Shown here piece after piece: positions 15,891-52,278 of a stretch of DNA of 64,000 nt. Every line of letters begins with the position of its first letter. Positions within the stretch are counted from its first letter, which is position 1. The DNA is from an uncultured Chloroflexia bacterium (lineage in GTDB: Bacteria; Chloroflexota; Limnocylindria; Limnocylindrales; CSP1-4): the NCBI GenBank assembly GCA_963746845.1, contig CAVVCZ010000005.1, forward strand, positions 288,001 to 352,000, given 5' to 3'. The translations under genes were made by a program, and so were the position numbers. The notes below the pieces were generated by a model. The model was not told where the DNA came from, made no database searches, and worked only from the letters and a program-made list of their open reading frames with translations.

Positions 15891-17012
15891 ATGTCGACCA
15901 CCCCGAGTAGCAGGCCTTCGTCCACGGCGATCGTCGGCTGGCTCGTGGTCGCAGTCATCGGGCTCGCGCTGGCCGCCCTCGTGGTCCTCAACGCCTCCGC
16001 GATCTGGAACAGCTTCTTCCCGCCCGAGGCGAAGAGCGTCCAGGGCCAGGAGATCCGCAACCTCTACGACATCGTCTTCGGCATCGCCGTCGTGATCTTC
16101 GTCGTCGTCGAGGGCCTGATCGTCTGGTCCGTGATCCGTTACCGGCGCAGGCCGGGCGACAACGAGCTCCCGCCGCAGACCCACGGCAACAACCTCGCCG
16201 AGATCACCTGGACGCTGATCCCGACCGTCATCGTCATCTTCCTGTTCATCGTCTCGTGGCAGACGCTGAACAGCGTCGAGGCGGAGTCGTCGCAGCCGAA
16301 CCTGAAGGTCCGCGCGGTGGCCGGCCAGTTCCAGTGGACGTTCGAGTACCTCCCGGCCGACGCCCAGTCCGACACGAAGGCGCTCTTCACGATCACGACG
16401 CCCCAGGGACCGGACGGCGGGCTCACCTTGCCGGCCGGCCAGACGACCCACCTCTATCTCAAGAGCCCCGACGTCATCCACGCGTTCTACGTCCCGCAGT
16501 TCCTGTTCAAGCGGGACGTCGTGCCGGGCGTCACGAACCAGTTCGATCTCGACATCCCCGCGAGCTCCGCCGGCCAGACGTTCCGTGGCCAGTGCGCCGA
16601 GCTGTGCGGGATCGGTCACGCCGGCATGCTGTTCGACGTCCATGCGGTCACGCCGGCCGAGTTCGACGCGTTCATGCAGAAGCAGATCGCGGCCGCCAAC
16701 GCGACGCCGCCGCCGGCGCCGTCCGGGGGCGGTGGACCCTCGATCCCGATCACGGCCGAGGGCATCAAGTTCGACCAGGCGACGCTCACGGCGCCGGCGG
16801 CCGGGTTCACCATCCACTTCGACAACAAGGACGCGGGCACGCCGCACGACTTCGACATCCTCGACGCGTCGGGCAAGAAGGTCTTCGACAGCCAGCCCTT
16901 CCCCGGCGTGGCCGCGAAGGACGAACCCGTTCCCCCGCTGACGGCGGGGAGCTACAAGTTCGAGTGCTCCGTGCACCCGACCCTGATGTTCGGCACGCTC
17001 ACGGTCCAGTAG
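15891..17012 (+). CDS. coxB: Cytochrome c oxidase subunit II with C-terminal cupredoxin fusion
   Basis: DVIHAF and CuA motif CAELCGIGHAGM; extra domain PHDFDI...YKFECSVHPTLM. Confidence 0.95.
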   Translation: MSTTPSSRPSSTAIVGWLVVAVIGLALAALVVLNASAIWNSFFPPEAKSVQGQEIRNLYDIVFGIAVVIFVVVEGLIVWSVIRYRRRPGDNELPPQTHGNNLAEITWTLIPTVIVIFLFIVSWQTLNSVEAESSQPNLKVRAVAGQFQWTFEYLPADAQSDTKALFTITTPQGPDGGLTLPAGQTTHLYLKSPDVIHAFYVPQFLFKRDVVPGVTNQFDLDIPASSAGQTFRGQCAELCGIGHAGMLFDVHAVTPAEFDAFMQKQIAAANATPPPAPSGGGGPSIPITAEGIKFDQATLTAPAAGFTIHFDNKDAGTPHDFDILDASGKKVFDSQPFPGVAAKDEPVPPLTAGSYKFECSVHPTLMFGTLTVQ

Positions 17013-17020
17013 GGGAGCTC

Positions 17021-18652
17021 ATGGCGACCACCACGCTGACGCCCGCCGCCACCACGTACCGGAGCGGTCTGTACGAGTGGCTGACGACCACCGATCACAA
17101 GAAGATCGGGATCCTCTACATCGTCAACTCGTTCGTCTTCTTCTTCATCGGCGGGATCCTGGCGCTGGGCATCCGGACCGAGCTCGCCCAGCCCGGCGTC
17201 CAGCTCGTCCCGAACGCGAGCGTCTACAACCAGCTCTTCACGATGCACGGGACGGTGATGATCTTCCTGTTCATCATCCCGATGCTCGCGGGGTTCGGGA
17301 ACTACGTGGCGCCGCTCCAGATCGGCGCGCCGGACATGGCCTTCCCGCGGATCAATGCCCTGTCGTTCTGGATGCTCCCGCTCGCCGGGATCCTGCTCCT
17401 GCTCGGCTTCGTGACCGGCGGCGCCGCCCAGGCCGGCTGGACGAGCTACAGCCCGCTCGCCCAGGACCGCCCGCTCGGCTCGCCCGGCTCCGGTGAGGAC
17501 CTGTGGATCATGGCCCTGGTCCTGATCGGCACGAGCTCGATCCTCGGGTCCGTCAACTTCCTCGTGACGATCTTCAAGATGCGCGCCCCCGGGATGACGA
17601 TGTTCCGGATGCCGATCCTCGTCTGGACCGTGCTCGTGACGAGCGTCCTCGTCCTGATGGCGACGCCGGTGATCACGAGCGCGCTGATCATGCTGTTCAT
17701 CGACCGGAACTACGGCGGGCACTTCTTCGACCCTGCCACCGGCGGCAGCGCGATCCTCTGGCAGAACGTCTTCTGGTTCTACTCGCACCCGGCCGTGTAC
17801 GTCATGGTCCTGCCGGCGATGGGCATGATCAGCGAGATCCTGCCGGTGTTCAGCAAGAAGCCGCTGTTCGGCTACAAGGCGTTCGTGTTCGCGACGGCCG
17901 GCATCGGGGCCCTGGGCTTCTCCGTGTGGGCCCACCACATGTTCACGACGGGGCTGGTGTACCTGCCGTTCTTCAGCCTGATGACGTTCTTCATCGCGGT
18001 CCCGACCGGGGTGAAGATGTTCAACTGGGTCTTCACGCTCCACCGCGGGAAGCTGTCGTTCTCGACGCCGCTGCTGTTCGCCCTCGGCTTCCTGACGATG
18101 TTCCTGATCGGCGGGATCAACGGCGCGTTCTCGGCCGCGGTCCCGGTCGACTTCGCCCTGCACGACACGTACTGGGTCGTCGCGCATCTCCACTATGTCC
18201 TCTTCGGCGGATCCGTGTTCGGGGTGATGGCCGGGCTCTACTACTGGTTCCCGAAGATGACCGGGCGAATGCTGGGTGAGGGGCTCGGCAAGATCCAGTT
18301 CCTCCTGATGTTCATCGGGTTCAACCTGACGTTCTTCCCGATGCACCAGCTCGGGCTGATGGGCATGCCCCGGCGGATCGAGGACTACGCGAGCAACGTC
18401 GGATGGAACCAGCTGAACCTGGCGGCGACGATCGGCGGCTTCACGATCGCCCTGTCGATGCTGCCGCTGCTGTGGAACGTCTTCACGTCGCTCCGCAACG
18501 GCAAGATTGCCGGCGACGACCCATGGGAGGGAAACACCCTCGAATGGGCAACGAGCTCGCCGCCGCCGCCGTACAACTTCGACCACCTCCCCGAGATTCG
18601 TTCCGAGCGGCCGCTCTTCGATCTCCGCCACGGCCGGACGGCGGCGCACTGA
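17021..18652 (+). CDS. coxA: Cytochrome c oxidase subunit I (A2 type)
   Basis: TDHKKIG, FTMHG, WFYSHPAVY (YS motif), WAHHM, VAHLHY, MPRR. Confidence 0.97.
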   Translation: MATTTLTPAATTYRSGLYEWLTTTDHKKIGILYIVNSFVFFFIGGILALGIRTELAQPGVQLVPNASVYNQLFTMHGTVMIFLFIIPMLAGFGNYVAPLQIGAPDMAFPRINALSFWMLPLAGILLLLGFVTGGAAQAGWTSYSPLAQDRPLGSPGSGEDLWIMALVLIGTSSILGSVNFLVTIFKMRAPGMTMFRMPILVWTVLVTSVLVLMATPVITSALIMLFIDRNYGGHFFDPATGGSAILWQNVFWFYSHPAVYVMVLPAMGMISEILPVFSKKPLFGYKAFVFATAGIGALGFSVWAHHMFTTGLVYLPFFSLMTFFIAVPTGVKMFNWVFTLHRGKLSFSTPLLFALGFLTMFLIGGINGAFSAAVPVDFALHDTYWVVAHLHYVLFGGSVFGVMAGLYYWFPKMTGRMLGEGLGKIQFLLMFIGFNLTFFPMHQLGLMGMPRRIEDYASNVGWNQLNLAATIGGFTIALSMLPLLWNVFTSLRNGKIAGDDPWEGNTLEWATSSPPPPYNFDHLPEIRSERPLFDLRHGRTAAH

Positions 18653-51052: not shown

Positions 51053-51123
51053 CGTCCTCCCATCCATCCGGGCGCCCCTGCGCCCGGCTCGATTGCCGGC
51101 TCCCCGGCCGTGCTGCGTGACTG

Positions 51124-52278
51124 CTACTTGACCTCGAGGGTCCCGAGCATCGTCGTCGGATGTACCTGGCAGAGGTACGTGTAGTTGCCGCTCTTCAGGG
51201 CCGGGACTGCGTACGACACCGTCTTGGGCCCGAGGAAGAACGCGGTGTCACCCATCGGGACGACGGACTTGCCGGCGTCCTCGATCACGATGTTGTGCTG
51301 GACCGTCGGGTCCTGGTTGTCGAACTTCAGCGTGAATGCCGTGTCCGCCTTGGCCTCGAGGGTCGTGGGCTGGAACCCGGCCGTCGCCGCGCCGCTCGGC
51401 GCCGTCACGGTCAGGACCGGCGCGTTCGGGTCGATCGAGGCCGCCGGAGCGGCGGACGATCCGCTGCCACCGGTCAGCGCGTCGAGGTAGCAGTCCGGGA
51501 ACGGCGTAGCGCCCGGTGCCGGCTTGTAGTTCGGGTCGCGCCATCCGGTGAACGTCTCGACCTTGCCGGTGGCCGGATCGATGATCGGCTCGTTCGTGGA
51601 CGGGTCGCGCTTCTCGTACGTGCCCTCGTTCGTGGCCCGCAGGAACGCGATCAGCTCGTCGATCTGGCGGTAGTTGAGCGGGCCGGGCGGGTTGCCCTTG
51701 TCCGACCAGACTGGCATCTGCGAGTTCGCGTTGCCGCACACATAACGGCCGCCGACCTGGAGGACGTTCCGGAGATAGCCCTCGTTGAGGTGAGCGTAGA
51801 GCTTCTCCTGGGAGTTCAGCTGCGGCCCGATGTAGCCCGCCGTGGCGGCGTCCGGCTCGTTGGGGCCGAGGCCGTTCGGGCCGTGGCAGCGAGCGCAGTT
51901 CGCCTCGAACAGGTTGTAGCCGCGCTGCACGTCGACCACCTGCTGGGCGGCCTCCTCGACCGCGAGGCGCGGCTTGGACAACCCGAGCGGCGAGCCGATC
52001 TCGTAGAACCAGTAGCCGACGATGAACAGACTGACGAAGATCACCGTCAGGAACCCGACCCAGCGAGCCGCGCCGGACTGGCGGACGATCCCGGCGGAGC
52101 GAGCCGGGGTCAGCCCGGCGTTCGACTTGATCGCGGGCGGGGCGGTGAACCGGTCCGCGGTCAGCTGGCTCTGCGGGATCGTCGCCGGCAGACGCTCCTC
52201 GGCGCCGCCGGCATCCGCGGCCGGCTCCGGCGTGCCCTCGGGCACCGGGGCCGGCGTCGACGGGGTCTGGTCGGTCAT
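51124..52278 (-). CDS. Membrane-anchored cytochrome c fused to a cupredoxin domain
   Basis: TM, CARCH heme motif, QMPVW; QHNIV...YLCQVHPTTM. Confidence 0.9.
   Translation of the reverse strand: MTDQTPSTPAPVPEGTPEPAADAGGAEERLPATIPQSQLTADRFTAPPAIKSNAGLTPARSAGIVRQSGAARWVGFLTVIFVSLFIVGYWFYEIGSPLGLSKPRLAVEEAAQQVVDVQRGYNLFEANCARCHGPNGLGPNEPDAATAGYIGPQLNSQEKLYAHLNEGYLRNVLQVGGRYVCGNANSQMPVWSDKGNPPGPLNYRQIDELIAFLRATNEGTYEKRDPSTNEPIIDPATGKVETFTGWRDPNYKPAPGATPFPDCYLDALTGGSGSSAAPAASIDPNAPVLTVTAPSGAATAGFQPTTLEAKADTAFTLKFDNQDPTVQHNIVIEDAGKSVVPMGDTAFFLGPKTVSYAVPALKSGNYTYLCQVHPTTMLGTLEVK

Follow-up and report, generated by a model that had tools for sequence, protein, structure and literature searches.

A 64,000-nucleotide stretch of DNA (the window: assembly GCA_963746845.1, contig CAVVCZ010000005.1, positions 288,001 to 352,000) from an uncultured member of the Chloroflexota order Limnocylindrales (genome G000, 92% complete) encodes an A-type cytochrome oxidase (complex IV) and a b6-type complex III in which three proteins end in a cupredoxin domain carrying the type-1 copper ligand set. 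The three hosts are oxidase subunit II (CoxB), a subunit-IV-like oxidase protein and the complex III cytochrome c. In CoxB and in the cytochrome c, the copper domain stands where relatives carry a haem c domain, and over longer evolutionary distances the tails have been exchanged between host proteins. These patterns point to a copper-based electron link between respiratory complexes III and IV. From the sequence comparisons, we consider it probable that the tails are tethered type-1 copper domains that can stand in for one another in carrying electrons between haem c and CuA, which would make the system a copper analogue of caa3 oxidase and of the actinobacterial bcc:aa3 system.

Each of the three fusions proposed in the initial annotation is present, with a Pro/Gly/Ser/Ala linker ahead of the cupredoxin and Pfam Cupredoxin_1 above its cut-off of 27 bits at each C terminus. 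The CoxB gene (15891-17012) encodes COX2_TM, COX2 and Cupredoxin_1 (37.1 bits), the subunit-IV-like gene (19556-20641) Cupredoxin_1 (34.3 bits) behind a sub-threshold Cyt_c_ox_IV match (E 4.5e-4), and the cytochrome c gene (51124-52278, reverse strand) Cytochrom_C and Cupredoxin_1 (39.9 bits). Type-1 ligands His/Cys/His/Met can be assigned in all three tails, as had been claimed: H319/C359/H362/M366 in CoxB, H306/C346/H349/M353 in the subunit-IV-like protein and H328/C370/H373/M377 in the cytochrome c. A cupredoxin beta-sandwich is indicated by the Pfam matches, by structure models with a predicted local distance difference test score (pLDDT) of about 80-98 over the domain, and by fold matches; among solved proteins, the nearest by sequence and by fold are for the most part carriers of the type-1 kind (auracyanin A, plastocyanin and amicyanin), which transfer electrons. 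The models contain two folded domains with a low-confidence linker between them (CoxB two-domain model: pLDDT 94, predicted template modelling score (pTM) 0.64; cytochrome c model: linker pLDDT <50, pTM 0.51). Among 3,249 roughly called genes of G000, seven end in the tail motif, compared with 0.25 per genome for shuffled tails, and all seven match a profile built on the three domains: the three fusions and four free lipoprotein-like proteins.

The ligands are conserved in homologues, being invariant in alignments of 69 and 27 rows. Tails picked by profile, a procedure that could leave out decayed copies, have intact ligands in 47/47 CoxB, 32/32 subunit-IV-like and 29/29 cytochrome c proteins, and all 108 have C-x2-H-x2-4-M plus an upstream His (one His read by eye). 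A degenerate relic was rejected as an explanation because the ligands are invariant though identities drop to 32-50%, and an assembly or frameshift artefact because the CoxB-cupredoxin fusion is intact in 77 of 80 loci, two of the others being cut by locus ends and one frameshifted.

The oxidase locus runs ctaG (divergent), coxB, coxA, coxC, a 64-amino-acid open reading frame (ORF), the subunit-IV-like gene, a thioredoxin gene and an ATP-binding cassette (ABC) transporter. TIGR02891 and TIGR02866 score above cut-off, identifying an A-type subunit I and a CuA-bearing subunit II; the YSHPAVY of CoxA is a motif that we take to be of the A2 type. The CuA residues of CoxB (H197, C235, E237, C239, H243 and M246) include ligands that are invariant or nearly so in the alignment. 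The profile of the subunit-IV-like protein matches exactly those subunit III helices (I-II, in 1m56_C) that the short CoxC lacks, and the hairpin motif occurs twice (H71 and H145). The 64-amino-acid ORF, missing from the initial annotation, has a profile match to the N-terminal half of mycobacterial CtaF. In the accessible text of PMC8361435, CtaE and CtaF of Mycobacterium smegmatis together make up subunit III and contact complex III. Because of the subunit III helix I-II matches, the CtaF-like small ORF and this CtaE/CtaF make-up, the subunit-IV-like protein is most likely a true oxidase subunit. A hydropathy scan of it gave four peaks, and six helices were read by eye; helix counts would place all three tails outside the membrane.

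The complex III genes are ordered FAD/Fe-S oxidoreductase (flavin adenine dinucleotide, iron-sulfur), b6, subunit IV, Rieske, cytochrome c and Kelch protein, and the combination of a Rieske protein, a short CxGG cytochrome b, subunit IV and a cytochrome c defines a b6-type complex. The oxidoreductase is of the glutamate-synthase small-subunit type and heads the complex III operon across the class. The Kelch protein was found in 35 of 131 class genomes, all from the two families that have the cytochrome c-cupredoxin fusion.

Distribution was followed in 130 class genomes plus G000 (131 in all), a draw added because the 80-locus CoxB set is biased toward full-length matches. Families are denoted f1 (that of G000), f2 (its sister family) and f3, f4 and f5 (other families of the class). 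The profile-building set includes G010, and G122 and G155 are counted in the f4 CoxB tally below and the class tallies; no conclusion depends on these three genomes. The closest relatives of CoxB that have a specific label are mostly Limnocylindrales. Cytochrome b of the complex III operon is present in 32 of the 42 f1 genomes, and all three fusions are intact in 23 of these 32, bearing out the co-occurrence anticipated in the initial annotation. Two of the remaining nine (G048 and G154) have no CoxB tail, and in the other seven a contig end or a frameshift intervenes or a gene was not found. Three of the 23, from genus g10, carry another type of cupredoxin as the cytochrome c tail. The ten f1 genomes without this cytochrome b (g6 and g7) gave no match to the cytochrome c and subunit-IV-like queries, and in g6 the complex III and oxidase genes are lost together. 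Genomes of f2 combine cytochrome c and subunit-IV fusions with a tail-less CoxB (4/4 genomes read). A 250-genome draw from the phylum yielded full-length matches to the Limnocylindrales cytochrome c fusion in f1 and f2 only. Some genomes have second oxidase operons that carry the tail (L231 and L241). The streamlined f2 genomes (L141, L142, L143 and L144) each have two subunit-IV-cupredoxin genes, one that follows coxC and into which the small ORF seems to be fused, the other with ctaG and a thioredoxin gene beside the complex III operon.

Haem c and copper replace one another slot for slot. In f3 and f5, CoxB ends in a haem c domain of the caa3 type (7/7 loci read), and complex III has a dihaem cytochrome c (8/8 loci). 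The cytochrome c is also dihaem in f4 (12/12 loci, one frameshifted), where 43 of 45 genomes have a CoxB match that reaches through the cupredoxin (ligands read in 16) and subunit IV is short and tail-less (7/7), so that of the three tails only that of CoxB is present. Copper domains occupy both slots in f1, with the subunit-IV copy in addition, and G299 has copper on complex III and haem on CoxB; all four haem/copper combinations of the two slots thus occur in Chloroflexota. Outside the class, 20 complex III loci (from 33 cytochrome b matches in 60 hand-picked genomes, all but one chosen for a CoxB match) comprise 9 dihaem, 6 monohaem plus cupredoxin, 2 cupredoxin with CxxCH lost, 2 trihaem and 1 unresolved type, and four further loci are monohaem plus cupredoxin. 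Homologues with copper on complex III include those of Ktedonobacteraceae and KTAU_04340 of Thermogemmatispora aurantia, which belongs to a cultured genus. The two proteins without CxxCH (L289:5306-6358 and L291:5483-6583) have C-x3-C followed by Tyr or Phe and no His, and keep the C-terminal cupredoxin; they represent a possible haem-free exit from the Rieske protein. The suggestion in the initial annotation that copper domains replace c-type haems therefore holds for two slots, those of CoxB and the second complex III haem, but not beyond them, since the first haem of complex III (CARCH) has been retained and the copy on subunit IV comes in addition.

Other cupredoxins occupy comparable positions. 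The g10 cytochrome c and the CoxB of f19 carry unrelated cupredoxin types in the same slots, so it is the copper site that is conserved and not one particular domain. The f19 CoxB has a plastocyanin-like tail within a joint III-IV cluster (3/3 loci read: L242, L243 and L244), where Rieske, b6, subunit IV, a trihaem cytochrome c, CoxB-cupredoxin and CoxA form one run. In G351, from another class, cupredoxins are found on the cytochrome c and on a hairpin subunit, and CoxB is tail-less; the cytochrome c (L277:1390-3066) has a long repeat region, LysM-like by eye, ahead of the cupredoxin, and the subunit-III-hairpin protein (L245:4447-5793) has an extra soluble domain besides the cupredoxin. A kinship between f3 CoxB haem tails and the second complex III haem was considered and set aside, strong similarity being limited to the f5 CoxB tail.

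The tails also move between hosts. Within a genus, tails on the same host protein are more alike (identity 0.60-0.63) than tails on different hosts (0.50-0.51), whereas across genera the two ranges coincide (0.44-0.48 and 0.45-0.48); within one genome, cross-host identity is 0.52-0.57. On a tail tree, the host label requires 24 changes, against a minimum of 2 and a shuffled mean of 49. This tree was made by a quick method from 89 columns, with 43 of 102 inner branches open, and does not include four domains that stand alone or are separated by a frameshift, four free proteins of G000 and two f19 rows. The identity and tree patterns together indicate that tail positions are stable in the short term and reshuffled in the long term. 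The three tails of G077 share 279-323 identical bases, although they lie in two loci about 40 kb apart (L236 and L136). Recent gene conversion was rejected as a general rule, as long identical DNA occurs in G077 only; the median longest shared run is 15 bases within genomes versus 12 between genera.

Under the interpretation that we favour, the three tails would be type-1 copper domains that carry one electron at a time, tethered on the membrane's outer face. Quinol would be oxidized at the b6-type complex and the one haem c reduced by the Rieske centre; from haem c, a cupredoxin at the end of a flexible arm would take the electron to CuA of the A2-type oxidase. The cytochrome c arm would take the place of the second haem of dihaem relatives and the CoxB arm that of the caa3 haem c, with the arm of the CtaF-like subunit as an extra; the arms would be interchangeable and partly redundant. 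Several observations weigh against this interpretation. Host-specific identity within genera makes some specialization of the tails possible, and the pattern within the order is a single inherited event and not a set of independent cases. G000 encodes free lipoprotein cupredoxins (ten PF13473 matches), so tethering there is not needed for want of a carrier. The CoxB and cytochrome c models have no confident packing of the tail on its host domain, which is compatible with flexible arms and does not prove them. Finally, Sco (PF02630) is scarce where the oxidase bears a cupredoxin, being matched in 6/45 f4, 0/5 f2 and 15/41 f1 genomes compared with 34/38 f3 genomes and the one f5 genome, which are of the caa3 type; in G000, neither Sco nor PCuAC was matched. 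This distribution fits a role in which the oxidase-side cupredoxins mainly supply or protect copper, assisting CuA assembly or stabilization in the manner of Sco/PCuAC or AcoP with little electron flux, and a precedent exists in AcoP, which the available part of PMC4059628 describes as a membrane-bound cupredoxin that keeps an oxidase active. We nevertheless regard such a role as rather unlikely. It leaves unexplained a cupredoxin attached to complex III, which contains no site for copper, and likewise the swapping with haem c at both slots; G077 possesses Sco and PCuAC yet keeps all three fusions; the Sco pattern tracks lineage and reflects few independent events; and the conserved TlpA/ResA-like thioredoxin of the operon could take over the thiol-reductase role of Sco.

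A stricter version of electron transfer, put forward in the initial annotation, is an obligatory relay from haem c through copper on complex III and copper on complex IV to CuA, here taken with a rigid III-IV supercomplex and each domain tuned to its position. The joint retention of all three fusions in most f1 genomes with the operon, the persistence of host-specific clustering within genera and the split CtaF-like subunit, whose counterpart with CtaE forms the III-IV contact in M. smegmatis according to the consulted portion of PMC8361435, all speak for such an order. The relay is nonetheless unlikely, since the CoxB tail is dispensable (missing from G048, G154 and 4/4 f2 loci), f4 has the CoxB copy only, and the modules do not group by host protein: same-host and cross-host identities are equal across genera, the tree demands its 24 host changes and the G077 tails share long identical DNA. 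Linker lengths, moreover, vary by 36-56 residues. Alternatively, the oxidase-side tails might serve to admit or to buffer electrons from donors other than complex III, for example free lipoprotein cupredoxins. The four free tail-motif proteins of G000, one of them closest to the cytochrome c tail, and the tail-bearing second oxidase operons agree with this idea, but the fused copies are retained in streamlined f2 genomes, where no free paralogue was identified, and g6 has lost complex III and oxidase genes together; we therefore judge it very unlikely. Returning to tethered, interchangeable carriers, the CtaF-like subunit suggests that complexes III and IV may associate closely or as a supercomplex. 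A bolder extension, which we advance only tentatively, would have Limnocylindrales depend on an obligate III-IV supercomplex scaffolded by the doubled-hairpin protein and possibly by the Kelch protein, with tethered blue-copper arms as the sole connection from the last haem to CuA; haem c and type-1 copper would be freely exchangeable plug-in modules across Chloroflexota, to the point that some Ktedonobacteria-type complexes (L289 and L291) would have lost the haem c site itself.

Free cupredoxins and cytochromes c were surveyed as well. The lipoprotein gene at 7542-8153, which the initial annotation had counted as a fourth cupredoxin of the set, belongs to a different family. It is a real lipoprotein-like ORF with H...C-x4-H-x4-M, and it was rejected as a family member because it has no Pfam match at E<=0.01, is missed by the three-domain profile, and has as its only NCBIfam match CopI (NF051440) at 45.6 bits against a cut-off of 280, a resemblance and not membership; the protein is probably not part of the respiratory chain. 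True free paralogues of the fused tails sit outside the window (for example, G000:C5:412195-412767), and the free G000 protein closest to the cytochrome c tail shares 59% identity with it. A soluble respiratory cytochrome c was also rejected for G000, in the 92% of the genome recovered: of two PF00034 matches, the sole one besides the complex III cytochrome c is membrane-anchored (L250:1276-1935, the genome's one further class-I cytochrome c), and its gene lies behind one that is CopD-like by eye. In five f2 genomes (1.0-1.4 Mb, 91-93% complete), PF00034 matches the complex III cytochrome c only, and 11 of 12 PF13473 matches above cut-off are fused tails, the twelfth (G025:C2) not having been read. 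In a comparison of five genomes, PF01578 has one match in G000 (G000:C8:61487-62086), G016 and G028 and two in the f3 and f4 genomes tested (G044 and G049), hinting at different cytochrome c maturation systems.

Both of the best-known tethered designs share features with this system. Like the caa3 oxidase of Thermus thermophilus (PDB 2yev; 2yev_B ranks second in a fold search with the CuA domain), it has an A-type oxidase with an additional redox domain following CuA in subunit II, but here that domain is a type-1 cupredoxin, CoxB has no CxxCH, and further copies are on subunit IV and complex III. Similarities to the actinobacterial bcc:aa3 system (QcrABC-CtaCDEF) are the short subunit III plus CtaF-like subunit and the two redox domains on the complex III cytochrome c, and the best NCBIfam scores of CoxA and CoxB are to actinobacterial models, below cut-off. 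A CtaE plus CtaF division of subunit III may be represented by the short CoxC and the CtaF-like pieces, but CtaF is here split, its hairpin doubled and fused to a cupredoxin, its scores are weak, and the two operons lie 30 kb apart; the cytochrome c is monohaem plus cupredoxin with one CxxCH in place of dihaem QcrC (NF050122, 25.9 bits against a cut-off of 200), and cytochrome b is split into a b6-like protein and subunit IV instead of a long QcrB with a C-terminal extension. With no CoxB haem, no dihaem QcrC and a split cytochrome b, the system belongs to neither type.

Partial precedents come from archaea. In the accessible text of PMC3128077 and PMC8305020, a haloarchaeal halocyanin is fused to CbaD (subunit IIa), likewise a blue-copper protein on a small oxidase subunit, but in a B-type archaeal oxidase, on a different small subunit and with the halocyanin N-terminal; those portions list the fusion as uncharacterized and mention no matching subunit II or complex III fusions. 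In ammonia-oxidizing archaea, plastocyanin-like copper carriers serve complexes III and IV (PMC4084955, in the portion available), whereas here haem c is kept, with the cupredoxin fused behind it, and the lineage is bacterial. Auracyanin, plastocyanin, amicyanin and AcoP, the last membrane-bound and oxidase-associated (PMC4059628, available part), share the fold and the His/Cys/His/Met set but are separate proteins, unlike the fused tails with their C-x2-H-x2-4-M loop of varying length. Within the literature searched, most subscription papers being beyond reach, there is no description of this architecture, in agreement with the initial annotation, which had not recognized it. Neither 'cupredoxin' nor 'copper' occurs in the main text of a Limnocylindria genomics paper (PMC13212565), whose readable supplements (one was unreadable) also lack the searched terms, and term searches of the accessible text of PMC5600118, PMC8756737 and PMC12533140 and of the first half of PMC7908018 gave no description of such fusions.

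With all four combinations occurring in one phylum, Chloroflexota offer a natural experiment that asks whether haem c and type-1 copper can stand in for each other between complexes III and IV. The range of known designs for bacterial respiratory chains would be widened by a copper counterpart to caa3 and to the dihaem bcc link, and copper arms would cut the haem iron need of a widespread uncultured soil and freshwater group. Since a named Thermogemmatispora protein carries the complex III fusion, that half of the system is testable in a growing organism.

Table 1. Features of the two respiratory loci and the separate cupredoxin lipoprotein, in window coordinates.
Feature	Position	Strand	Basis
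CopI-like cupredoxin lipoprotein, other family	7542..8153	-	profile, Pfam, NCBIfam
CtaG-type caa3 assembly factor, divergent from cox operon, start approximate	14672..15712	-	Pfam Caa3_CtaG E 1.5e-74; position shared by most relatives' loci
CoxB: transmembrane part, CuA domain, linker, predicted type-1 cupredoxin	15891..17012	+	Pfam; TIGR02866 above cut-off; model
CoxB cupredoxin tail, in slot of caa3 haem c domain	16740..17009	+	Pfam, alignment, sister loci
CoxA, haem-copper oxidase subunit I, YSHPAVY	17021..18652	+	Pfam, NCBIfam, sequence
CoxC, short subunit III without helices I-II	18652..19311	+	Pfam COX3 profile positions 78-255 only
64-amino-acid two-helix protein resembling N-terminal half of actinobacterial CtaF	19325..19519	+	kept between coxC and subunit-IV-like gene; profile match 8hcr_H E 1.4e-3
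Subunit-IV-like protein: helix, two subunit III helix I-II hairpins, helix, linker, cupredoxin	19556..20641	+	Pfam; profile match 1m56_C residues 10-65, E 4.4e-5
Cupredoxin tail of subunit-IV-like protein	20366..20638	+	Pfam, profile, ligands
Membrane-anchored ResA/TlpA-like thioredoxin (WCGPC), conserved behind subunit-IV-like gene	20658..21224	+	Pfam, NCBIfam, relatives' loci
Kelch-repeat membrane-anchored protein, last complex III operon gene	49586..51067	-	Pfam
Complex III cytochrome c: one helix, monohaem domain (CARCH, residues 128-132), linker, cupredoxin	51124..52278	-	Pfam, model
Cytochrome c cupredoxin tail, in slot of second haem of dihaem relatives	51127..51417	-	alignment, relatives' loci
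Rieske iron-sulfur protein	52278..52952	-	Pfam PF00355
Subunit IV (PetD-like) of split b6-type cytochrome b	52995..53612	-	Pfam PF00032
Cytochrome b6-like subunit with CxGG motif, start approximate	53730..54458	-	Pfam PF00033; sequence
FAD/Fe-S oxidoreductase heading complex III operon, longest ORF, true start uncertain	54455..56686	-	Pfam, NCBIfam; conserved upstream of petB in class loci reaching it

The span 15891-52278 consists of two loci about 30 kb apart, and the genes scanned between them, past the thioredoxin and ABC transporter genes, are unrelated; those at 26468-38015 include phosphoenolpyruvate carboxylase, a GAF sensor kinase with a response regulator, the glutamate synthase large subunit and an ammonium transporter. 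The window also contains genes for tRNA-Met (23044-23118) and tRNA-Lys (42503-42576), and ARAGORN reports a tRNA-like gene with a four-base anticodon loop (ccgg) at 58543-58631.

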